Assembly (NCBI GenBank): GCA_964594155.1
Contig: CAZQLH010000004.1
Span: 1 to 57,642 of the forward strand
DNA from: an uncultured Candidatus Saccharibacteria bacterium
Lineage (GTDB): Bacteria > Patescibacteriota > Minisyncoccia > Portnoybacterales > UBA2143
Length of the DNA: 57,642 nucleotides
Direction of reading: 5' to 3'
Shown: positions 4,177-31,963 of the stretch, piece by piece
Numbering within the stretch: position 1 is the stretch's first letter
Layout: each line of letters opens with the position of its first letter
Position numbers and translations under genes: made by a program
Notes under the pieces: generated by a model
What the model was told of the DNA's origin: nothing
What the model saw: only the letters and a program-made list of their open reading frames with translations
Database searches by the model: none

Positions 4177-5343
4177 ATGAAATTCCTTAGGGATTTTAAT
4201 TTTGAAGATAAGCGCGTTTTGGTTCGGGTTGATTTTAATGTGCCTTTAGGCAATGATAAACAGGTTGATGAAAAAGAGGATTGGCGTTTAAGAGCTGTTT
4301 TGCCAACTATTAATTATTTATCAAGACAAAAAGCAAAGATTATTCTTTTAGCTCATTTAGGAAGACCAAGAGGAAAAAAAGAAAAAGAGTTAATGCTTGA
4401 TCCAGTGTCTCAAAGATTAGAAGAATTGTTAAATCAAAAAATATTGAAATTAGATGATTGTATTGGCCCAGAAGTTGAAAAAAACATAGTTAAGATGAAT
4501 CCAGGCGAGATAGTTCTTTTAGAAAACCTCCGTTTTTATCCTGAAGAAAAAGAAAATTCTCCTGATTTTGCCAAACAACTGGCTAAATTAGGAGATTTTT
4601 ATGTTAATGACGCCTTTGGAACAAGCCATCGCGCCCATGCTTCAATAAATGGCTTGCCAAAACATTTGCCTAATTGCGCTGGCTTGCTTTTGGAAAAGGA
4701 AATTAAGAATCTTTCCAAGGTTTTAAATGAATTAGAAAATCCTTTATTAGTAATTATTGGCGGAGTTAAAATTTCAACTAAAATTAAATTCATTGAAGTA
4801 TTTTTAAAAAAAGCTGATAATTTAATTTTAGGAGGAGCTTTAGCCAATACAGTTATTAGAGCCAAGGGCTTTGCCATAGGCAAGTCTATTATTGAAGAAG
4901 AAATGGTTGATCAGGTTAAGAAATTAGAACTAACAAGCATTAAGCTTCATCTGCCAGTAGATGCTGTTGCTTCAGTTGATGTTTCTGGGAATAAGGATAG
5001 CCGTATTGCTCCTATTGGCAAAACAAAAGAAGATGAGATGATTTTAGATATTGGGCCAGAAAGCGAAGATCTTTTTAGAAAGATAATTTTTCAGGCTAAA
5101 GTGATTATCTGGAACGGGCCAATGGGGATTTTTGAAGTAGATAAGTTTGCTAAAGGAAGCAGGGAAATAGCTAAAGCAGTTGTTCAAAGTTCAGCTTTTT
5201 CAGTGGCAGGCGGCGGTGACACTATTGCTCTTTTAGAACAACTGAATTTATTTGATAAAATAGATCATGTTTCTACTGGCGGAGGATCAATGCTTAAATT
5301 TTTAGCAGGAGAAAAACTGCCAGGCATAGAAGCCTTAAATTGA
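4177..5343 (+). CDS. pgk: Phosphoglycerate kinase
   Basis: RVDFNVP, HLGRP, LENLRF, NDAFGTSHRAHAS, WNGPMGIFE and STGGGS motifs. Confidence 0.97.
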   Translation: MKFLRDFNFEDKRVLVRVDFNVPLGNDKQVDEKEDWRLRAVLPTINYLSRQKAKIILLAHLGRPRGKKEKELMLDPVSQRLEELLNQKILKLDDCIGPEVEKNIVKMNPGEIVLLENLRFYPEEKENSPDFAKQLAKLGDFYVNDAFGTSHRAHASINGLPKHLPNCAGLLLEKEIKNLSKVLNELENPLLVIIGGVKISTKIKFIEVFLKKADNLILGGALANTVIRAKGFAIGKSIIEEEMVDQVKKLELTSIKLHLPVDAVASVDVSGNKDSRIAPIGKTKEDEMILDIGPESEDLFRKIIFQAKVIIWNGPMGIFEVDKFAKGSREIAKAVVQSSAFSVAGGGDTIALLEQLNLFDKIDHVSTGGGSMLKFLAGEKLPGIEALN

Positions 5344-5344
5344 G

Positions 5345-7105
5345 ATGAAGTGGCAAGTAAAACCCAAAGCGCCAAGCGCTTTTTTTAAAAAATTTCCTGA
5401 ATATTCTCCTTTGATTGCGCAAATGCTTTATAACAGGGGATTAAAAACTCAACAACAAATTGATGAGTTTTTTAATTCTGACTATCAGGAAGATATTCAT
5501 GATCCTTTTTTGCTCAAAGGAATGAAAAAAGGAGTTAAGCGTATTCTCCAAGCAATTGAAAAGCAGGAAAAGATATTAATCTACGGCGATTTTGACGCTG
5601 ATGGCGTTTGTTCAGCAGCTGTTTTGTTTCTTACTCTTAAAGATTTAGGAGCTCAAAATATTAGCACATATATTCCTGACAGAGAAAAAGAAAATCACGG
5701 GCTTAATCAAAAATCAATTGAAGAAGCAGCTCAGAATAAAACAGATTTGATTATTACTGCTGATTGCGCCAGTGGCGATATTAAAGAAGTGGATTTAGCT
5801 AAATCTTTAGGAATGGATGTTATTATCACTGACCACCATCAAGTTGGAGATGAAATACCCAAAGTAATAGCTTTGATTAATCCTTGGCAAAAAGGAGATA
5901 AATATCCTTTTAAAGGATTGTCTGGGACTGGCGTTGCTTATAAGCTGGCCTGCGCTTTATTGTCTTCAAAAGGAAATAAAAACGACAATCTATTAGAGAA
6001 ATGGTTATTGGATTTAGTCGCTATAGCCACAGTAACTGATGTAGAATCAATAATTGGCGAGAACCGAACTTTGGTTAAATACGGCTTAGGCGTCTTAGCC
6101 CAAACCAAGTGGCTGGGATTAAAGAAATTAATGGAAATAGCTCAAGTCAATCCTCAAATAAATCATCATTCTTTGAATGGTGAAGCGCCTTTAACTAATC
6201 TTGATACCTATACTCTGGGCTTTGTATTGGGTCCGCGCTTGAATGCGGCTGGGCGAATTGGCCATGCTAATACTGCTTTTCGCCTTTTAACTACTCAAGA
6301 CAAAAAAGAAGCTAAAGAATTAGCCTTAAGACTTAATCAGAAAAATATTAAGCGACAGGGCTTGACTAATAGGGTTTTTAAAGAAGTTGTAAATCGTTTA
6401 GATGAAAAAATTGATCAAGGGAAAGATTTCAAGCTTGTTTTTGAAGGAAGTTCTGATTGGCCAATAGGTTTGGTTGGCTTAATAGCTGGCAAGATTAAGG
6501 ATAAATATTCCCGTCCAGCCATTATTTATCATCAAAGAGGCGATTTAATCCATGCTTCCTGCCGAAGCATTCCAGAATTTGATTTAATGGGCATGCTCAA
6601 ACAAGGCGCTAAGTTTTTTGATGATTTTGGCGGACGTTGCGGAACAGGCGGATTTAGAATGAATTCTAAAAAACTTAATCAAGTTAAAGAAAAATTTAGC
6701 CAGATAGCTGAAAAAAAATTGAGAAATATAGATGTAACTTCTGTTTTAGAAATTGATAAAGAATTATATTTAAAAGATGTTGATTGGAAGAATTATGATC
6801 AAATTCAGCGTTTTGCGCCTTTTGGAAAAGCTAATTCAGAGCCAAGATTTTTAATTAAAGGATTAGAAGTAAATAATTTAAGAGCAGTTGGCAATAATTC
6901 AGGGCACTTAAAAATGAAATTGACAATATTTGATAAGGATTCAAAAACAGCTAAAAGCTTTAATGCGATTGGATTTGGATTAGGCAAAAGAACAGAGGAG
7001 ATAAAAAAAGGAGACTTGATTGATGTTGTTTTTGAGCTTATAGTCAATGAATGGAATGGACAGCGTAATTTAGAAATAAAAGTAATTGATTTAAAATTAG
7101 CATAA
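5345..7105 (+). CDS. recJ: Single-stranded DNA exonuclease RecJ
   Basis: YGDFDADG, PDR...HGL, TDHH, IATVTDV, GPRLNAAGRI, PFGKAN and GHLK motifs. Confidence 0.93.
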   Translation: MKWQVKPKAPSAFFKKFPEYSPLIAQMLYNRGLKTQQQIDEFFNSDYQEDIHDPFLLKGMKKGVKRILQAIEKQEKILIYGDFDADGVCSAAVLFLTLKDLGAQNISTYIPDREKENHGLNQKSIEEAAQNKTDLIITADCASGDIKEVDLAKSLGMDVIITDHHQVGDEIPKVIALINPWQKGDKYPFKGLSGTGVAYKLACALLSSKGNKNDNLLEKWLLDLVAIATVTDVESIIGENRTLVKYGLGVLAQTKWLGLKKLMEIAQVNPQINHHSLNGEAPLTNLDTYTLGFVLGPRLNAAGRIGHANTAFRLLTTQDKKEAKELALRLNQKNIKRQGLTNRVFKEVVNRLDEKIDQGKDFKLVFEGSSDWPIGLVGLIAGKIKDKYSRPAIIYHQRGDLIHASCRSIPEFDLMGMLKQGAKFFDDFGGRCGTGGFRMNSKKLNQVKEKFSQIAEKKLRNIDVTSVLEIDKELYLKDVDWKNYDQIQRFAPFGKANSEPRFLIKGLEVNNLRAVGNNSGHLKMKLTIFDKDSKTAKSFNAIGFGLGKRTEEIKKGDLIDVVFELIVNEWNGQRNLEIKVIDLKLA

Positions 7106-7110
7106 ATATT

Positions 7111-7545
7111 ATGAAAACTGTAATTTACACTGATGGCGGGGCTAGGAATAATCCTGGACCAGCTGGTATCGGAGTTGTTATCCAAAAACAAAATCAAACT
7201 CTTAAAAAATACAGCGAGTTTATTGGAGAAGCTACTAATAACGAGGCTGAATACCAGGCAATTATTTTTGCTTTAAAAAAAGCAAAACTGCTTTTTGGCA
7301 AGAAAAAGACCAAAGAAATGGAAATAGAATTATATTCTGACAGTGAATTAATAGTTAAGCAAATGAATCACGAGTATAAGATCAAGGAAGCAAATCTTCA
7401 GCCCTTATTTATTAAGGCCTGGAACTTGACACTTGACTTCAAACAAGTTAGTTTTAAACATGTTCTTAGAGAGAAGAATGCAGAGGCAGATAGATTAGTA
7501 AATCAAGCGCTAGACGCAGAGGAAAAGACCCAGACGCTTTTGTAA
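7111..7545 (+). CDS. rnhA: Ribonuclease HI family protein
   Basis: YTDGGARNNPGPAG, TNNEAEY, YSDSELIVKQ and NAEADRL motifs. Confidence 0.9.
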   Translation: MKTVIYTDGGARNNPGPAGIGVVIQKQNQTLKKYSEFIGEATNNEAEYQAIIFALKKAKLLFGKKKTKEMEIELYSDSELIVKQMNHEYKIKEANLQPLFIKAWNLTLDFKQVSFKHVLREKNAEADRLVNQALDAEEKTQTLL

Positions 7546-24599: not shown

Positions 24600-24670
24600 T
24601 GCCGGGTCATCTAATGGTAGGATGCATCTCTCTGGAAGATGTCATCTAGGTTCGAGTCCTAGCCCGGCAG
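24600..24670 (+). tRNA. tRNA-Gln(CTG)
   Basis: Acceptor TGCCGGG/CCCGGCA, anticodon stem CATCT/AGATG with loop CTCTGGA, T-loop GTTCGAG. Confidence 0.92.
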
Positions 24671-24713
24671 CTAGTGTTAGCACTGGTTCGAGTGACCGTG
24701 GTGTCTCAAATAC

Positions 24714-25571
24714 ATGGTCAGTTTAAATAAAACAAAAATATTTCGATTTCATCCTTTAATTCGAAATAGGTTAATCTCTCGCGAAAGTAGTACAGTCGAA
24801 TTTAAAGAATCCTTTAATTGGTCTTCTAAGGATAAGTACGCAAAAACAATGTCTGCTTTTGCAAATAATAAAGGAGGAGTTCTTGTCTTTGGTGTAAGAA
24901 ATAATCCTCGTGAATTAGTTGGAATACAAGGCGCAAATTTTGAAAATATAGATGAGGCAAAGATTACAGAATATTTAAATAGCGTTTTTGTTCCTGAAAT
25001 ACAATTCGAAAAATATACAGATACGATACGAAGAAAACAAGTTGGTATTTTGAAAATTCATCCGTCGATCAAAAAACCAGTAATTTCTATCAAAAACGAT
25101 AGGGTTTTGAAGGAATCGGAAATTTACTATAGATATATAGCACGGAGCGAGAAGATTAAATATCCGGAACTTCAATCAATATTGGAGGAAGAGAAGGAAA
25201 AAATTGAAGAAAAATGGCGAAATCTTTTGAATAATCTTGGGAGAATTTCTGATATCGGGCAGGTAACAATGTTAAATGAGGATTCTGGTCAGCCAATGAG
25301 AATTACCGATGACCCGAATGCTCCAGTGGTCAGGATAGAAGAGGATCCAACAATTGGCGGATTTATTTTGCGATATCGAGATATCACCATTGAAATGCAT
25401 AAGAGATCAAAGTCTTTTAAACAAAATGATAAATTTCATAAATTGATGCGTAAGTTAAAAAAGAAAGAAGAGTTATGTCGTATTCGGTTTTTATATCCAA
25501 ACAATCCAGATAGCACAAAAGCTCAATTTTTTCATCCTAAGATACTCGATGAACTAGAGAAACATTATTAA
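24714..25571 (+). CDS. Schlafen/AlbA_2 domain protein with uncharacterised C-terminal domain
   Basis: ESSTVEFKES...SAFANNKGGVLVFGV AlbA_2 signature. Confidence 0.8.
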   Translation: MVSLNKTKIFRFHPLIRNRLISRESSTVEFKESFNWSSKDKYAKTMSAFANNKGGVLVFGVRNNPRELVGIQGANFENIDEAKITEYLNSVFVPEIQFEKYTDTIRRKQVGILKIHPSIKKPVISIKNDRVLKESEIYYRYIARSEKIKYPELQSILEEEKEKIEEKWRNLLNNLGRISDIGQVTMLNEDSGQPMRITDDPNAPVVRIEEDPTIGGFILRYRDITIEMHKRSKSFKQNDKFHKLMRKLKKKEELCRIRFLYPNNPDSTKAQFFHPKILDELEKHY

Positions 25572-25640
25572 ATAAATCAATATTAAATAAATCAATTTAG
25601 CTGGCTGGTTTTATTTTTATAAAACTATTTGAAATAGACT

Positions 25641-26495
25641 TTGATAATAATGAGAAGAATAAAATCACATACATTGGAAAAACTAAAATATTTCGAGAAA
25701 TATATAGAAGCTTATTTATTTGCAACTAAAAGGCTTTCTAAAAAGTATTATATTGATGCATTTGCTGGTACAGGAAAGTGTATATTTTGCGAAGAAGATT
25801 ATTGTAATTCAAAAGGAGGTTCTAGGTGTGAAAAATGTGGAAGCGGTAATTATATCGATGGGTCAGGATTAATAGCCTTAAAAGCTAAAAATAGATTTAG
25901 TGGTTACCTTTTAATAGAAGAAAACAAGAGCAATTTCATTTCTTTAAAGAAATCTATTGAGAGGGAAATGCCATATGACTTTTTTAAAGGTATTATTTTA
26001 AAGAACGATGACTGTAACAAAGTTTTATTAAATTTAAATAAACATATTGATTTCGATAAATATACAGGTTTTTTTGTTTTTTTAGATCCAGAATCATCAG
26101 AATTATCTTGGGATACTATAAAGTGTTTGTCAAAAATAGAAAAAATAGATTTGATGATATTGTATCCTTATAATATGTCATTGGTGAGATTAATAAGGGA
26201 TTATTCTAGAAGATTAGATAATTTTTATGGAACAAACGAATGGGAAAAGATTTATAAAAATAGGATCAGTCCAAATGATGCAAAAATAAAATTATTAAAC
26301 TTTTATAGAGATAATCTTAAAAAATTAGATTTTAAATACGTTGAGTATAGACAGATAAAAAGAAGCCTTAGGAGTGGTAAACCACTTTACCATCTGATGT
26401 TAGCTACTCGGAATGACACTGCTAAAAAAATAATGATTGATATCTTTGATAAAGAATTAGATGGTCAACAAAAAATAAAACTGCCCGAAAATTAA
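25641..26495 (+). CDS. TcmP-like (three-Cys-motif partner) SAM-binding methylase-fold protein
   Basis: HTLEKL..FEKY, YIDAFAGTG, NDDCN, FVFLDP, L.WDTI..L, IDLMI, FYGTNEW and PLYHLMLAT; adjacent to a radical SAM gene. Confidence 0.75.
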   Translation: MIIMRRIKSHTLEKLKYFEKYIEAYLFATKRLSKKYYIDAFAGTGKCIFCEEDYCNSKGGSRCEKCGSGNYIDGSGLIALKAKNRFSGYLLIEENKSNFISLKKSIEREMPYDFFKGIILKNDDCNKVLLNLNKHIDFDKYTGFFVFLDPESSELSWDTIKCLSKIEKIDLMILYPYNMSLVRLIRDYSRRLDNFYGTNEWEKIYKNRISPNDAKIKLLNFYRDNLKKLDFKYVEYRQIKRSLRSGKPLYHLMLATRNDTAKKIMIDIFDKELDGQQKIKLPEN

Positions 26496-26540
26496 AATTT
26501 ATTTAGATTGATATAAATAGTATAATTATTAAGGGTTAAA

Positions 26541-27380
26541 ATGAGAACTATAAAACGAAAGTCTTTACTATACAAAAGTGATGTCGAATACGCTAGTTAT
26601 GCTTTAAATCATGTTGAAGGTTGTTCCCATGGATGTCTTTATCCGTGTTATGCAATGATGATGAAAAAAAGATATGGTAGAGTGAAAAATTATCAAGATT
26701 GGATAAAACCAAGAATAGTTTTTAATACTTTAGAGTTATTAGACAAGGAATTGCCGAGATTGAAAAATAAAATTAATTATGTATTTTTGTGTTTTACAAC
26801 TGATCCTTTTATGTATCAAATGAAAGAAGTTCAAGAATTAAGTTTAAAGGTGATAAAAAGATTAAATAAGAACAATATTAAAGTTGTTTCTATAAGTAAA
26901 GGAGTATATCCGAAGGAACTTGCTAAAAAAAGTATTTATGGAGAAAATAACGAATATGGAAATACAGTTATTTCTTTATCTGAAAATTTTAAGAAAAAAT
27001 ACGAGCCATTTGCCGCTCCTATCAAGAAAAGAATTAAATCATTGAGAAAATTGCATGATAGTGGGTTAAAAACATGGGTTAGTATTGAGCCATATCCTAC
27101 GCCGAATATTATTAAACAAAATATTGAAGAAATTTTAAAAGAAGTTTCTTTTGTTGATAAAATAGTTTTTGGAAAATGGAATTACAATACGATTATCGGT
27201 TCTTTTGCAGGATATAAAAAATTTTATGATGAAACTGCTAAATATGTGATTGATTTTTGCGAAAAAAGAGGAATCAAAGCGCATATAAAAGAAGGTACAA
27301 TGATATCAAGAAAAAACAATGAGGCTTTTTGCCCTCGGTTTACAGAAAACTTGCGACAAGAATATTTTTTTATTAAATAA
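26541..27380 (+). CDS. Radical SAM protein (SPL-like family) with Cx3Cx3C motif
   Basis: NHVEGCSHGCLYPCYA, FTTDPF, ISKG, YEP.AAP...R...L..LH and TWVSIEP. Confidence 0.8.
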   Translation: MRTIKRKSLLYKSDVEYASYALNHVEGCSHGCLYPCYAMMMKKRYGRVKNYQDWIKPRIVFNTLELLDKELPRLKNKINYVFLCFTTDPFMYQMKEVQELSLKVIKRLNKNNIKVVSISKGVYPKELAKKSIYGENNEYGNTVISLSENFKKKYEPFAAPIKKRIKSLRKLHDSGLKTWVSIEPYPTPNIIKQNIEEILKEVSFVDKIVFGKWNYNTIIGSFAGYKKFYDETAKYVIDFCEKRGIKAHIKEGTMISRKNNEAFCPRFTENLRQEYFFIK

Positions 27381-27388
27381 AAAAATAC

Positions 27389-28114
27389 ATGAAACAACAC
27401 GAAGTAGTTATAAAAACAATGGAAGAAAACGGAGGTTTTGCAACGCTTGGTTTTTTAAATCAAAATGTTAATGTTTCTAATTGGAAAACAAAAACGCCGT
27501 TTGCAAGTATTAGGCGTATTGTTCAAGATGATAGATTTTTCTTTAAAATAAGACCTGGTCTTTGGGCTTTAAAAACTTATAAGGATAAATTGTCTGAAAA
27601 CATTTTTCCAACAGAGAAAATTTCTAAAGCAAAACAAGAAGAATTTAATCATTCATATTATCAAGGACTGCTTGTAGAAATAGGTAATCTTAAAAAACAA
27701 GAAACATTTGTTCCATATCAAGATAAAAATAAAAAATATTTAGGAAAAAATTTATCCGAAGTAACAACTATTGAAAAGTTTTATAATTTCACTTATGAAG
27801 ATTTACTAAGAAGCGCAATAACAATTGATGTTACTTGGTTTAATAAAAGAAAAATACCGTCTAATTTTTTTGAAGTAGAACATTCTACGGATATTAAAAA
27901 TTCTCTTGGCAAATTTGTTCAATTACAAGATTTTCATACAAAATTTTATATTGTAGCTGATATTGCCAGAAAAAGAGAATATGAAGATAAATTAAATTTA
28001 AGCATGTTTAATTCTGTTCAAGATAGAGTCAATTTTATTGATTATGAAAGTTTATCTATTTGGCATACAAAAAGTTTTGAAATATACAAGTTAGAAAATA
28101 ATTTTAAATTATAA
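27389..28114 (+). CDS. HTH plus PD-(D/E)xK restriction-endonuclease-like protein
   Basis: N-terminal W.TKTPFASIRRIVQ...F.KIRPGLWAL (HARE-HTH-like); C-terminal IDVTWF...FEVEHSTD...L.KF resembles a nuclease active site. Confidence 0.6.
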   Translation: MKQHEVVIKTMEENGGFATLGFLNQNVNVSNWKTKTPFASIRRIVQDDRFFFKIRPGLWALKTYKDKLSENIFPTEKISKAKQEEFNHSYYQGLLVEIGNLKKQETFVPYQDKNKKYLGKNLSEVTTIEKFYNFTYEDLLRSAITIDVTWFNKRKIPSNFFEVEHSTDIKNSLGKFVQLQDFHTKFYIVADIARKREYEDKLNLSMFNSVQDRVNFIDYESLSIWHTKSFEIYKLENNFKL

Positions 28115-28118
28115 AAAA

Positions 28119-28286
28119 ATGAAATTAAAAGAATTTATTCAAAAATTAAAAAGAATAGCAAAAAAACATGGAGATGATGCAAAAGTTATTATGGCTGATA
28201 ATATTCCAGCGGTTAATCCTGTTTTTTCAGAAGAATATCCAAACAAAAAGAATGTGATTATAACAGATGAAGAAGAAAAAAATTAG
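28119..28286 (+). CDS. 55-aa hypothetical protein (not in ORF track)
   Basis: MKLKEFIQKLKRIAKKHGDDAKVIMADNIPAVNPVFSEEYPNKKNVIITDEEEKN; fills the gap, 4 nt after the upstream stop. Confidence 0.55.
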   Translation: MKLKEFIQKLKRIAKKHGDDAKVIMADNIPAVNPVFSEEYPNKKNVIITDEEEKN

Positions 28287-29300: not shown

Positions 29301-30083
29301 ATGGATTTTATACAAGCAGTTATTACAATTTGGCATAGAGAAGTAATTCGCTATCTTAGAGATAAGATAAGGATTGTTTCAACCTTTTTTCAGCCTTTAA
29401 TGTTTTTATTAATTTTTGGCATAGGCCTTCAGGAAACATTAGCTGATGGTAATTTTAGCATGGATTTTATTCAATTCATGTATCCAGGCATTATTGCAAT
29501 TAATGTCATGGGAGTTGCTTTTTTTGCTACAATTTCTACTGTTTGGGATAGGGAATTTGGCTTTCTTAAGGAAATATTAGTTGCCCCTATTTCAAGACTT
29601 TCTATTGTTATTGGAAAGATATTAGGGGCTACTACTGTTGCTGTATTTCAAGCATTAATTCTTTTAATTATTGCTCCTTTTGTTGGTATTAATCTTAGTT
29701 TAATGATTGTTTTAAAGCTTTTCTTTTTTATGGCTCTTTTAGCCTTTTCTATTTCATGTTTAAGTTTGTTAATTGCTTCTTTAATGACTACTATGGAAAG
29801 CTTTGGCCTTATAATGCAGCTTCTTATCTTTCCAATGTTTTTCCTTTCAGGAGCTTTTTTCCCACTTACAGCTGTGCCTTTATGGATGACAGCGCTTTCA
29901 AAGATAAATCCATTAACTTATGGAGTTGATGCTTTTAGGCAGATTATTCTTGGTCCTCAGGTTTCTGCAGAAGTGATTAACAGTGTTGCTTTGCATTCTA
30001 TTTCTGCAAATACATTGTTTCTGATCATTTTCTCCTTTATAATGGTTACAATAGCAGTATTAACTTTTGAAAGGAATAGTTAA
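29301..30083 (+). CDS. ABC-2 type permease
   Basis: 6 TM; DREFGFLKEILVAPISR, FPMFFLSGAFFP and NPLTYGVD. Confidence 0.9.
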   Translation: MDFIQAVITIWHREVIRYLRDKIRIVSTFFQPLMFLLIFGIGLQETLADGNFSMDFIQFMYPGIIAINVMGVAFFATISTVWDREFGFLKEILVAPISRLSIVIGKILGATTVAVFQALILLIIAPFVGINLSLMIVLKLFFFMALLAFSISCLSLLIASLMTTMESFGLIMQLLIFPMFFLSGAFFPLTAVPLWMTALSKINPLTYGVDAFRQIILGPQVSAEVINSVALHSISANTLFLIIFSFIMVTIAVLTFERNS

Positions 30084-30087
30084 AAAT
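30029..30087 (+). repeat. 59-bp perfect direct repeat, left copy (3' end of permease)
   Basis: Identical to 31406-31464, checked base by base. Confidence 0.95.
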
Positions 30088-30119
30088 AGAATAGATTTAT
30101 GGTTTGTGGATAAAAAGTA

Positions 30120-30148
30120 TTGACAACCGTTATTTTTTGTAATATTAT
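30120..30148 (+). promoter_or_regulatory. Sigma70 promoter of the cassette small RNA
   Basis: TTGACA, 17 bp, TATTAT; predicted +1 about 30155, the first base of the RNA closing stem. Confidence 0.7.
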
Positions 30149-30154
30149 AGCAGT

Positions 30155-30245
30155 GTGCTTGTGGGCGAAAGCCCCGTTCAGCCAAGGATTCTCCTAAGCT
30201 GAAGGCAAGCACAACAAAGATACCGCTTTTGAGCGGTGTTTTTGT
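30155..30245 (+). ncRNA. Putative ~90-nt three-way-junction RNA ending in an intrinsic terminator
   Basis: Stems GTGCTTG/CAAGCAC, GGGC-GAAA-GCCC, TTCAGC/GCTGAA with inner AGGA/TCCT; terminator ATACCGCT-TTTG-AGCGGTGT-TTTT. Confidence 0.6.
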
Positions 30246-30284
30246 TTATTTACATTTTGTTTAAAAAATGAGAAGATATTATAT

Positions 30285-30746
30285 ATGGAGGATGTAAAGT
30301 ATTTTAATGAAAAAAAGAAGAAGGCAAGAGAATTATATAATAAGCAAAAAGATGTTTATAATCCTTATTTAGAAAGCCAGGTTGTTTTTAATTCTGATGG
30401 TTTTCATCATTTACAATTTTCAGCAAGAAGAGAAAGAAACAAGAAAGAACAAATTCTTAAATTTAATCTTTTGTTATTAGCTATTAAGGTTATTAAAAAA
30501 TCAGGCACTCTTCAGGAATATAGGAAAGATTTATTAGCCATAGGTAAAAAATCAAAAGATGGATTAAGGAAAACAAAAGAAGTTCAATATTGGGGATTTG
30601 TTGCTATTATTGGTAGTCCAAGCATTAAGATTAGAGTAATATTAAGAAGAGTTGGTGATGGTAATATTATTTTCTGGAGTGTTTTACCCGATTCTAATCT
30701 TAAAAAAGGACAAAAGCTATATACTCAAGGAATTAAAGACGAATAA
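30285..30746 (+). CDS. Putative BECR-fold (PBECR/RelE-like) ribonuclease
   Basis: V.FNSDGFHHL..S...R...EQ..K..LL..A..VI...G..QE...YW.F.A...I.V.VI.R.VG.G...FWSV.P; fold assigned from memory of similar CPR proteins. Confidence 0.55.
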   Translation: MEDVKYFNEKKKKARELYNKQKDVYNPYLESQVVFNSDGFHHLQFSARRERNKKEQILKFNLLLLAIKVIKKSGTLQEYRKDLLAIGKKSKDGLRKTKEVQYWGFVAIIGSPSIKIRVILRRVGDGNIIFWSVLPDSNLKKGQKLYTQGIKDE

Positions 30747-30750
30747 ATAT

Positions 30751-31401
30751 ATGAAAATTACTAAATATCCTCAATCATGTTTTCTAATTAAATATAATGG
30801 GATGAATATTTTAATTGATCCTGGAACTTATGTTTTTAACTTAATGAATATTAATCCAAGTGATTTTAGAAACATTGATATTGTGTTATTGACTCATGAA
30901 CATTCAGATCATACATATCCAGAAGCATTAAAAGAAATTTATCAAAATAATAAATGTCCTATTATTTGTAATAAACCGGTTTATGACATTTTGCAAAAAG
31001 AATTAGTTCCATCTGAAGTTTTAAAGTATGGCGATATTAATGAAATTAAGGGAGTGAAAATAAAAGGCACTAAGTCAACGCATGGCGATTTGCCGTCGGG
31101 TAAGCTAAAGCCAGAAGTGATTGGATTTTTGATTGATAATAAAATTTATCATCCAGGAGACACAGTTTATCTTAAAGAAAAGCCGTATGCAGATGTTGTA
31201 TTTGTGCCTATTTGTGGAACAGTAGTTATGGATGCGGCCCATGCTGTTAAATTTGTGAAAGACATAAATCCTAAGTTAGTCATACCAATGCATTACGATA
31301 ATCCAAGCTATTCTCAAGATACTAAGAGTTTTGTTAATCTTATAAAAGAAAATTCTTTGAATGTTAAGGTTTTGGAATTTGGTGAAAGTATTGAGTTTTA
31401 A
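30751..31401 (+). CDS. Metallo-beta-lactamase fold hydrolase (UlaG/YtkL-like)
   Basis: QSCFLIK, IDPG, THEHSDH (HxHxDH), YHPGDT and IPMHY; start moved to ATG 30751. Confidence 0.88.
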   Translation: MKITKYPQSCFLIKYNGMNILIDPGTYVFNLMNINPSDFRNIDIVLLTHEHSDHTYPEALKEIYQNNKCPIICNKPVYDILQKELVPSEVLKYGDINEIKGVKIKGTKSTHGDLPSGKLKPEVIGFLIDNKIYHPGDTVYLKEKPYADVVFVPICGTVVMDAAHAVKFVKDINPKLVIPMHYDNPSYSQDTKSFVNLIKENSLNVKVLEFGESIEF

Positions 31402-31405
31402 AAAC

Positions 31406-31464
31406 TTTCTCCTTTATAATGGTTACAATAGCAGTATTAACTTTTGAAAGGAATAGTTAAAAAT
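31406..31464 (+). repeat. 59-bp perfect direct repeat, right copy
   Basis: Identical to 30029-30087; ends 1 nt before the FKBP ATG. Confidence 0.95.
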
Positions 31465-31465
31465 T

Positions 31466-31963
31466 ATGAAAAACATTATCTCAACAATTATTATTTTAGC
31501 GGTTATTGCAGCTGGCTTTTATCTTCTTTCTCAGCTAACTGGAAAAGATGAAATTAAAGGAGTGAATTTTGAAGCAAATGAAGTTCAAAATCAGGAAACT
31601 CCAGCAGATAGCTCCCAGCAAGGAATTAAAAAAGTTACAGAATTAGCAGCTGAAATTGTAAAAGAGGGTACTGGCCAGGAAGCTAAGAATGGCGATAAAG
31701 TAACTGTTCACTATGTAGGAGTTTTAGAAGATGGAACTAAATTTGATTCTAGCTTAGATAGAAATCAGCCTTTTACTTTTGATTTAGGAGCTGGCCAAGT
31801 GATTCAGGGCTGGGATTTAGGCGTAGTTGGAATGAAAATAGGGGAAGCAAGAATGCTGTACATTCCATCAGAATTTGGCTATGGAGAAACAGGCACTCCA
31901 GGAGGCCCTATTCCTCCTAATGCAAACCTTATTTTTCAAGTAGAGTTATTAGGAATAGAATAA
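31466..31963 (+). CDS. FKBP-type peptidyl-prolyl isomerase with N-terminal anchor
   Basis: [34 protein letters not shown] and YG......IPPNA.LIF.VEL. Confidence 0.93.

Follow-up and report, generated by a model that had tools for sequence, protein, structure and literature searches.

Contig CAZQLH010000004.1 of an uncultured Candidatus Saccharibacteria bacterium (57,642 nucleotides, all of which were analysed and are hereafter called the window) carries, between the gene of an ABC transporter permease and that of an FKBP-type peptidyl-prolyl isomerase, a segment of 1318 bp bracketed by two identical 59-nt direct copies of the permease 3' end, and it is the nature and origin of this segment that are considered here. 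All the features concerned lie on the + strand. The permease gene (29301..30083) is of the ABC-2 type (Pfam ABC2_membrane, E = 1.9e-36; drrB subfamily in NCBIfam) and is intact, its frame starting at 29301 and closing with the stop codon at 30081-30083; the closest relatives of its product are 87-88% identical. Downstream of it lie a predicted promoter (TTGACA-17-TATTAT, 30120..30148, 11/12 matches to the consensus) with a conserved TGTGGATAAAAA box ahead of it, the gene of a conserved small RNA (sRNA; 30155..30250) predicted to fold into a three-way junction followed by an intrinsic terminator (minimum free energy -48.8 kcal/mol, z = -6.9), an open reading frame (ORF) encoding a conserved protein of 153 amino acids (ORF153; 30285..30746) and the gene of a metallo-β-lactamase (MBL)-fold metal-dependent hydrolase (30751..31401; Pfam Lactamase_B_3, E = 2.7e-30), which is a lineage-specific accessory gene. 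The row continues with the FKBP gene (31466..31963; Pfam FKBP_C, E = 3.3e-37), whose product has a predicted signal or anchor helix.

The duplicated permease 3' end

The two copies, found by repeat search, occupy positions 30029..30087 and 31406..31464, are 100% identical and lie 1377 nt apart from start to start; a search of the whole window shows them to be its sole perfect repeat of at least 28 nt. Their boundaries, as read from the sequence, are sharp on both sides, copy 1 being immediately preceded by GATCAT and followed by AGAATAG, copy 2 preceded by AAAAAC and followed by TATGAAA; the left junction consists of CTGATCAT, the 59-mer and AGAATAGATT, the right one of TTTTAAAAAC, the 59-mer and TATGAAAAAC. 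Each copy starts with one leftover nucleotide of a codon and continues with 17 complete codons, the stop codon TAA and the sequence AAAT. In copy 1 these are the last 55 nt of the permease gene and the four nucleotides beyond it, whereas copy 2 is a non-coding vestige of the same 3' end, lying directly 5' of the FKBP gene, starting 4 nt past the MBL stop codon and ending 1 nt (a T) before the FKBP ATG at 31466; it carries a TATAAT (31415-20) and an AGGA. Deletion of one repeat unit leaves permease-TAA-AAAT-T-ATG-FKBP. An earlier reading of this DNA, hereafter the original prediction, had proposed a perfect 59-bp duplication of the permease 3' end, with the FKBP ATG following the second copy, a compact junction being restored by the removal of one unit and neither integrase nor transposase being encoded in between. 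All this was borne out, the single T being the only nucleotide between copy 2 and the ATG, and no recombinase gene being found between the repeats. Its statement that 18 codons, the stop and 4 nt are repeated stands for the stop and the 4 nt, but the codons number only 17, plus one nucleotide.

The AGGA of the permease end resembles a Shine-Dalgarno sequence and is spaced as usual from the start codon downstream; in the related locus L020 the permease end likewise serves as ribosome-binding site for the gene that follows it, and the end of the FKBP gene itself displays the same architecture ahead of its own downstream neighbour. For these three reasons copy 2 can be taken to provide FKBP with a coupling signal of the native type. 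To judge from its sequence, copy 2 would now supply the FKBP ribosome-binding site and perhaps also a -10 box, as part of a promoter-like TTGAGT-18-TATAAT (31391-31420) that spans the MBL end and copy 2, such sites being no more frequent in this region than in a shuffled background; FKBP transcription would then be predicted to start inside copy 2, at ~31427.

The permease stretch corresponding to the 59-mer differs from it at 2 nt and by 1 indel in the sister locus L018 and at 4 nt in L020, and neither window copy is as close to any orthologue as it is to the other copy; with 0 differences in 59 nt, the event would be younger than, roughly and by our own estimate, ~5% neutral divergence. The right boundary of the repeat falls at the point where conservation of the permease flank ceases in the relatives (TAAAAA(A)T), L018, L020 and both window copies diverging thereafter. 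The 59-mer is accordingly ordinary host DNA that stops where the homology between the two contexts stops, as is to be expected of a homologous insertion or duplication scar of the Campbell type. The end of the MBL gene (31397..31403) reads TTAAAAA, the same heptanucleotide that is present in both repeat copies (30079-85 and 31456-62); 2 of the 50 long ORFs of the window end in T+TAAAAA, and the sharing may represent either microhomology or coincidence. As DNA, the 59-mer does not fold (-3.5 kcal/mol, z = -0.23) and is devoid of a hairpin or of a recognisable recombination core, and the repeat search reveals no inverted repeats at or near the ends of the segment.

The same arrangement recurs in other assemblies. 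Exact-protein look-ups were made with ORF153, FKBP and the permease, 24 contigs being read for each, all from JGI and ENA assemblies and from many marine samples; in more than 24 independent metagenome contigs, and in every one long enough to show both, the same two junctions are present, and none of the contigs of the three look-ups joins the permease directly to FKBP. Twenty aligned contigs are ~100% identical to the window over up to 5.3 kb, with four variants in all. The duplication is therefore fixed in a clonal population and is not an assembly artefact, the outcome that had been named as capable of refuting the original prediction; because the population is clonal, the contigs are silent on the age of the event. 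One of these variants, a 1-nt deletion in an A6 run at window position 30546, which shortens ORF153 to 93 amino acids, occurs in two independent contigs (L112 and L115, the same as L122 and L125) and is either a homopolymer error of sequencing or assembly or a real frameshift variant. The metatranscriptome runs searched yielded nothing from this organism.

The sRNA-ORF153 pair and its chromosomal interval

The predicted sRNA consists of helices P1 (30155-61 with 30206-12), P2 (GGGC-GAAA-GCCC) and P3 (30177-82 with 30198-203), and its intrinsic terminator extends from 30213 to 30246, so that the RNA would measure ~96 nt with the terminator and ~65 nt without it. In an alignment of 40 distinct sequences standard pairs occupy 96% of the cells; P1 displays two compensatory pairs (U-A to C-G and G-C to A-U, with G-U intermediates) and the tetraloop occurs as GAAA, GCAA or GUAA. 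The sRNA is otherwise nearly invariant, and the near invariance of P2 and P3 makes these two helices uninformative for covariation. The TGTGGATAAAAA box and the promoter are also conserved 5' of the sRNA in the relatives. Conservation of sequence and structure, covariation, and a promoter and a terminator of its own all characterise it as a conserved structured RNA. It belongs to no Rfam family at gathering or E-value thresholds, and no relevant description of such a Patescibacteria sRNA was found in the literature; identity with the signal recognition particle (SRP) RNA, prompted by a shared GCCAAGG, was rejected, the SRP model giving no match and the architecture being that of a three-way junction.

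ORF153 has 842 relatives (~61-85% identity), all from Patescibacteria-type sources. It finds no significant match in Pfam, PHROG, NCBIfam, PADLOC or the PDB sequences, and its AlphaFold2 model (predicted local distance difference test score of 80) has no fold match in the PDB; weak fold matches were obtained in BFVD (probability 0.97-1.0, TM score ~0.5, E ~7e-3), and these are to the "large polyvalent protein-associated domain 3" of phage polyvalent proteins. Thus, of the cargo listed in the original prediction, the promoter, the small RNA, the ORF and the MBL hydrolase are indeed present, whereas the epithet "nuclease-like" given to ORF153 stays a guess.

The sRNA adjoins an ORF153 homologue in ~74 of 80 metagenome loci, and does so in two fixed arrangements, namely upstream on the same strand, as in the closest relatives of the window, or downstream and convergent, as in most others; in both it is provided with a TTGACA/TATAAT promoter and a terminator of its own. 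The gene order is stable over deep divergence, as exemplified by the succession MurJ-ORF-sRNA-LepA found in L011, L016, L045 and L052, and this stability is what would be expected of vertical inheritance and not of a wandering cassette. The sRNA and ORF153 look like an undescribed, highly conserved RNA-protein pair.

Four further observations concern this pair and its surroundings. A tRNA-Gln gene (CTG or TTG, depending on the lineage) precedes the sRNA in the same orientation in six or more lineages, three of which have it directly upstream (L013 4698-4772, L028 1965-2036, L032 2220-2293 and L031 4060-4133 are among its positions, and it is also seen in L047/L049); the linkage may reflect an old gene order or a functional link with the pair. 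In L101 (1950-2429 and 2761-3219), and also in L102, there is a tandem second pair, composed of a 37%-identical ORF153 paralogue and of its own diverged sRNA with a GGGGC-GTCA-GCCC arm. In L094 the gene of a large serine recombinase (832-2208; with domains of the Resolvase, Recombinase and zinc-ribbon types) begins at a distance of 119 nt from the sRNA 5' end, an arrangement suggestive of a mobile element that has integrated next to the sRNA gene or has it as its target. Lastly, a second conserved non-coding element of ~95 nt (CGACCGGGGTG...GATAGTCCAAGAAAG...AATCTGGACCGA...CAGC) follows ORF152 in two lineages (L013 5460-5565 and again 7346-7451; L021 5459-5559) and has no Rfam match at the gathering score.

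The chromosomal interval in which the pair of the window resides is anchored on the left by a tRNA-Gln(CTG) gene (24600..24671, + strand, ARAGORN) and on the right by FKBP. A backbone that can be written tRNA-Thr-RF2-FtsE-FtsX-tRNA-Gln-{variable}-sRNA-ORF153-{variable}-FKBP-IscS-NifU-L32-NusB is common to the window, L032 and L031/L026; in L018, L031 and L032 FtsX is likewise followed by this tRNA-Gln, RF2, FtsE and FtsX being 68-91% identical, and the FKBP orthologues of L018, L026 and L013 are 82%, 69% and 66% identical, respectively. In L031/L026 (backbone identity 70-73%) the interval is filled by an S51 peptidase, a serine hydrolase, the sRNA and ORF152, and then FKBP; in L032 (68-81%) the sRNA-ORF153 pair lies immediately 3' of tRNA-Gln; in L013/L028 (ORF152/153 78-84% identical) the interval follows dnaX, not FtsX, and contains another tRNA-Gln, the sRNA, ORF152 and three or four accessory genes before FKBP; in L038 and L040 ORF153 (79-82% identical) is located shortly upstream of FKBP. 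The sister L018 (88-91%) has the ABC ATPase, the permease, four small genes and FKBP, and neither sRNA nor ORF153; the window, which is the reference for these identities, has a five-gene island, the ABC ATPase, the permease, the sRNA, ORF153, the MBL gene, copy 2 and FKBP. Judging from these gene orders, the sRNA-ORF153 pair appears to be a backbone resident of the interval, around which other genes come and go.

The MBL gene behaves differently from the pair, for it adjoins ORF153 in no other locus and the unit sRNA-ORF153-MBL is absent from ~90 related loci, so that the three-part unit is unique to the window lineage. The nearest homologue of the hydrolase (64% identical) is encoded on an unrelated contig between DUF3467 and DnaK, in a GrpE ... 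DnaK context, and further homologues occur in Patescibacteria and in DPANN archaea (Woesearchaeota, Nanoarchaeota), a distribution that hints at gene exchange among ultra-small episymbionts; the protein also gives a weak Pfam match to Anti-Pycsar Apyc1.

The five-gene island extends from 24714 to 28286, between tRNA-Gln and the ABC operon, and encodes an AlbA_2 protein, a protein of 281 amino acids, a radical SAM protein, an NmeDI_C-type nuclease and a protein of 55 amino acids; since it is missing from the sister L018, in which the ABC ATPase gene starts 2 nt after the tRNA, it represents an insertion in the window lineage. At the start of this island, right after tRNA-Gln (24687-24706), is the only occurrence in the window of the motif TTCGAGWGACCGWGGTGYCT. 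In L021 the motif is present at 4460-4479, upstream of a NUDIX gene, and as a diverged copy near 6519, upstream of His_Phos_1, the two bracketing a NUDIX-sRNA-ORF152 block; the breakpoint between the strains L021 and L024 is located where the first copy ends.

Exchange of blocks with breakpoints exactly at gene boundaries is seen between L021 and L024 and between L089 and L090. In the latter two loci an ORF153-sRNA module lies between direct repeats of 80 bp that are ~90% identical to each other (906-985 and 1671-1750 in L089, 1997-2076 and 2759-2838 in L090) and consist of the promoter and the first ~25 codons of a serine hydrolase-like gene, truncated in both copies; the sequence just to the right of the second repeat is not the same in the two loci. 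In L021 the NUDIX-sRNA-ORF152 block is flanked by 58-nt repeats ~84% identical (64 nt at 78% by an ungapped measure). These older, diverged repeats are consistent with a general tendency to duplicate junction sequences in which expression signals reside.

How the segment may have arisen

The flanking direct repeats are derived from the target, as those of an element flanked by attachment (att) sites would be. On the other hand, occurrence at other sites or in other genomes, an empty site and a circle were all looked for in the contigs and loci searched and none was found, and the cargo is not foreign to the backbone, the MBL gene alone being patchy in its distribution. A second copy or a vestige of the segment was sought within the window, including a vacated site after tRNA-Gln, where only short matches at chance level were encountered, as well as in the ~90 related loci, and neither the sRNA nor ORF153 turned up on viral contigs, in phage records or on plasmids. 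A dedicated element is disfavoured because foreign cargo, other copies, empty sites and site structure were each tested and, within the scope of these searches, not found.

The explanation that we consider best, and to which we would assign a probability of about 0.6, is that the segment is not a self-contained mobile cassette and that the two 59-mers are the scar of a single event brought about by ordinary homology or by the replication machinery. The core, that is the promoter-sRNA-terminator and ORF153, would be a resident pair inherited vertically, and the MBL gene a lineage-specific addition. Two routes can be envisaged. By the first, which we slightly favour, a circularised fragment of ~1.38 kb, originating from the same or from a sister population and carrying the last 59 bp of the permease together with the module, would have undergone a Campbell-type single crossover into a chromosome whose permease and FKBP genes were translationally coupled neighbours, the site of exchange being the 3' end of the permease; the right boundary of the repeat would then mark the end of the homology, the left boundary the point of closure of the fragment (AAAAAC/TTTCTCC, without microhomology), and the recipient would have to be free of the module, as L018 is. 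By the second, which fits about as well and would require no second lineage, the event would have occurred in place, either as a tandem duplication followed by losses or as a template switch at TTAAAAA by which the permease end was copied ahead of FKBP. By either route copy 1 would keep the permease intact and copy 2 would survive as the FKBP ribosome-binding site and possibly as a -10 box. Of the integration of a small circle, as originally predicted, the topology holds, being what one crossover of a circle with the end of the permease gene would produce; the mobile cassette finds no support.

Several points weigh against a scar of this kind. The Campbell route calls for a donor in which permease and module are adjacent as well as for a recipient lacking the module, which is awkward if the module is ancestral in the interval; duplication followed by loss implies several precise steps, and a template switch leaves the joint AAAAAC/TTTCTCC without microhomology. 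Furthermore, no state preceding the event was found: in the nearest relative the permease is only 88% identical, and the population is clonal. No genome above this 88% exists in the collections searched, and a degenerate pattern of the permease 3' end matched nothing among the metagenome contigs, a set to which the samples of the window do not belong, and only L018 in the genome collection. L018 has no module at this position, its permease and FKBP being separated by four other genes. Finally, direct repeats enclosing ORF153 are more frequent than expected (11 observed against 4.5 in a sliding control); most of them belong to dispersed repeat or promoter families and only those of L089/L090 and L021 resemble the repeats of the window.

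The model that follows from the original prediction, a mobilisable cassette lacking a recombinase and endowed with a 59-bp attP, inserted site-specifically into the permease 3' end by an Xer-like tyrosine recombinase or a serine recombinase acting in trans, in the manner of cis-mobilisable elements or of satellites by which the 3' end of the target gene is restored, appears unlikely. Perfect flanking repeats running from inside a gene to just past its stop codon, as at many att sites, the tight boundaries of the cargo and the native-looking coupled junction obtained upon removal of one unit are all what such a cassette would leave; also in its favour are the abutment of the large serine recombinase gene on the sRNA gene in one distant relative, L094, and the 80-bp repeats around the module of L089/L090, although these are fragments of the 5' end of a hydrolase gene, both truncated, unlike a clean att duplication. 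Yet the core of the cargo is a conserved pair in stable order lying in its usual interval, the three-part unit is confined to this lineage, neither another copy (in the window, in viral or in plasmid sequences) nor an empty site (in the three look-ups of 24 contigs) came to light, and the 59-mer has neither hairpin nor inverted repeat nor core-type motif; mobilisation in trans at a coding-sequence att site thus found no support.

Equally improbable, in our opinion, is a variant related to the two routes above, homology-facilitated illegitimate recombination following DNA uptake, in which a linear fragment from a related strain with permease and module adjacent would have been anchored by homology in the permease and joined illegitimately by its far end 59 bp upstream of the permease stop of the recipient, so duplicating those 59 bp. 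Such recombination has reportedly been established in Acinetobacter and Streptococcus. The topology is appropriate, one side being homologous and the other a blunt novel joint (AAAAAC/TTTCTCC), and strain-level block replacements at gene boundaries are seen in related populations; duplications and merodiploids formed during natural transformation have been described (PMC3784515). Nevertheless, this mechanism needs a recipient without the conserved module at this site, neither a donor-type nor a recipient-type genome was found in the collections and contigs searched, and on the present data it is indistinguishable from the Campbell-type route.

A broader and rather doubtful proposition is that Patescibacteria shuffle small, self-expressed gene blocks, the sRNA-ORF153 pair included, within hypervariable intervals by means of circles that recombine at target-derived sequences of 59-80 bp. 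The catalyst would be a trans-acting Xer-like or serine recombinase or, alternatively, a RecA pathway operating on very short homology; the window would represent a fresh and still perfect case, and the repeats of L089/L090 (80 bp, ~90%) and of L021 (58 nt, ~84%) would be older ones.

That a separate 1377-bp circle and a permease-FKBP chromosome, or two strains, were misjoined across the repeat is scarcely credible, for although Logan contigs (k=31) break at the 59-bp repeat, leaving an ambiguous graph in which an occupied site looks no different from an empty one accompanied by a circle, two scaffolds (L005 and L119) have an N-gap at copy 2 and the repeat unitig in two runs has a depth of 76, slightly above the flank sum of ~61 (an excess judged uninformative), many independent assemblies, samples and pipelines agree on both junctions, with 20 aligned contigs practically identical and none showing permease-FKBP, the depth of the segment is about that of its flanks, and the assemblers presumably used, as they normally do, words longer than 59 as well as read pairs.

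Relation to known systems and significance

Among known processes, Campbell-type integration shares with the present case an insert lying between two identical homologous segments, the lack of special features, a repeat that ends with the homology and a target gene left intact; it differs in that here the homology amounts to just 59 bp, there is no vector or replicon, the donor would be the organism's own or a sister chromosome, and the event has become fixed in a clonal population in nature, in which no precursor is seen. Tandem duplication with random loss and template-switch insertions leave short vestiges beside an intact copy. They resemble the window in this respect and in the 7-nt microhomology TTAAAAA at the relevant ends, and depart from it in that several precise deletions or a double switch would be needed and that one joint is without microhomology.

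Phages and integrative and conjugative elements use att sites in tRNA, tmRNA and protein genes and bring along a replacement 3' end, and integrase-less elements that can be mobilised in cis also exist. With these the segment has in common a repeat that reaches from inside a gene to beyond its end, the restoration of the gene and the lack of an internal integrase; unlike them it has resident cargo and, in the sequences searched, lacks further copies, empty sites and recognisable core or arm sites. An integron gene cassette is likewise a small recombinase-less unit in a one-directional row of genes, and that its attC has been called a "59-base element" is a coincidence of length: attC is a folding, imperfect palindrome that varies from cassette to cassette, whereas the 59-mer is a non-folding (z = -0.23), perfect direct copy of a coding end, flanked by no inverted repeats. 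Moreover, an integron cassette is usually a promoterless single ORF, and the unit of the window has a near-consensus promoter of its own and three genes (an RNA gene and two ORFs); this identity was rejected. The same applies to a transposon or insertion sequence, as terminal inverted repeats are lacking and the duplication is 59 bp long as opposed to the 2-15 bp of a target-site duplication.

As to the pair itself, modules made of a small RNA and a small RNase are known in type III toxin-antitoxin systems such as ToxIN, and phage polyvalent proteins reportedly combine nuclease and accessory domains. The putatively strongly expressed structured RNA beside a small basic protein is reminiscent of the former, and the weak fold matches of the ORF153 model to a polyvalent-protein domain of the latter; unlike ToxIN, however, the RNA is built as one three-way junction, with no array of tandem repeats, its order with respect to ORF153 is stable and its sequence nearly invariant. 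The pair looks more like a housekeeping RNA-protein pair than like a ToxIN-type module.

Had the first reading been true, the segment would have constituted a recombinase-free cassette with a coding-sequence attachment site in a phylum whose mobile elements are poorly known. The evidence favours the ordinary reading, namely that a streamlined genome bears, in one of its hypervariable intervals, the fixed scar of a rearrangement. Duplication of the overlap would allow genes to be reordered while the 3' end of one gene and the translation signals of the next both stay intact. The scar would represent an insertion or duplication event of a known type, bracketed by host sequence, and the sRNA-protein pair, often linked to tRNA-Gln, appears to be the more promising object.

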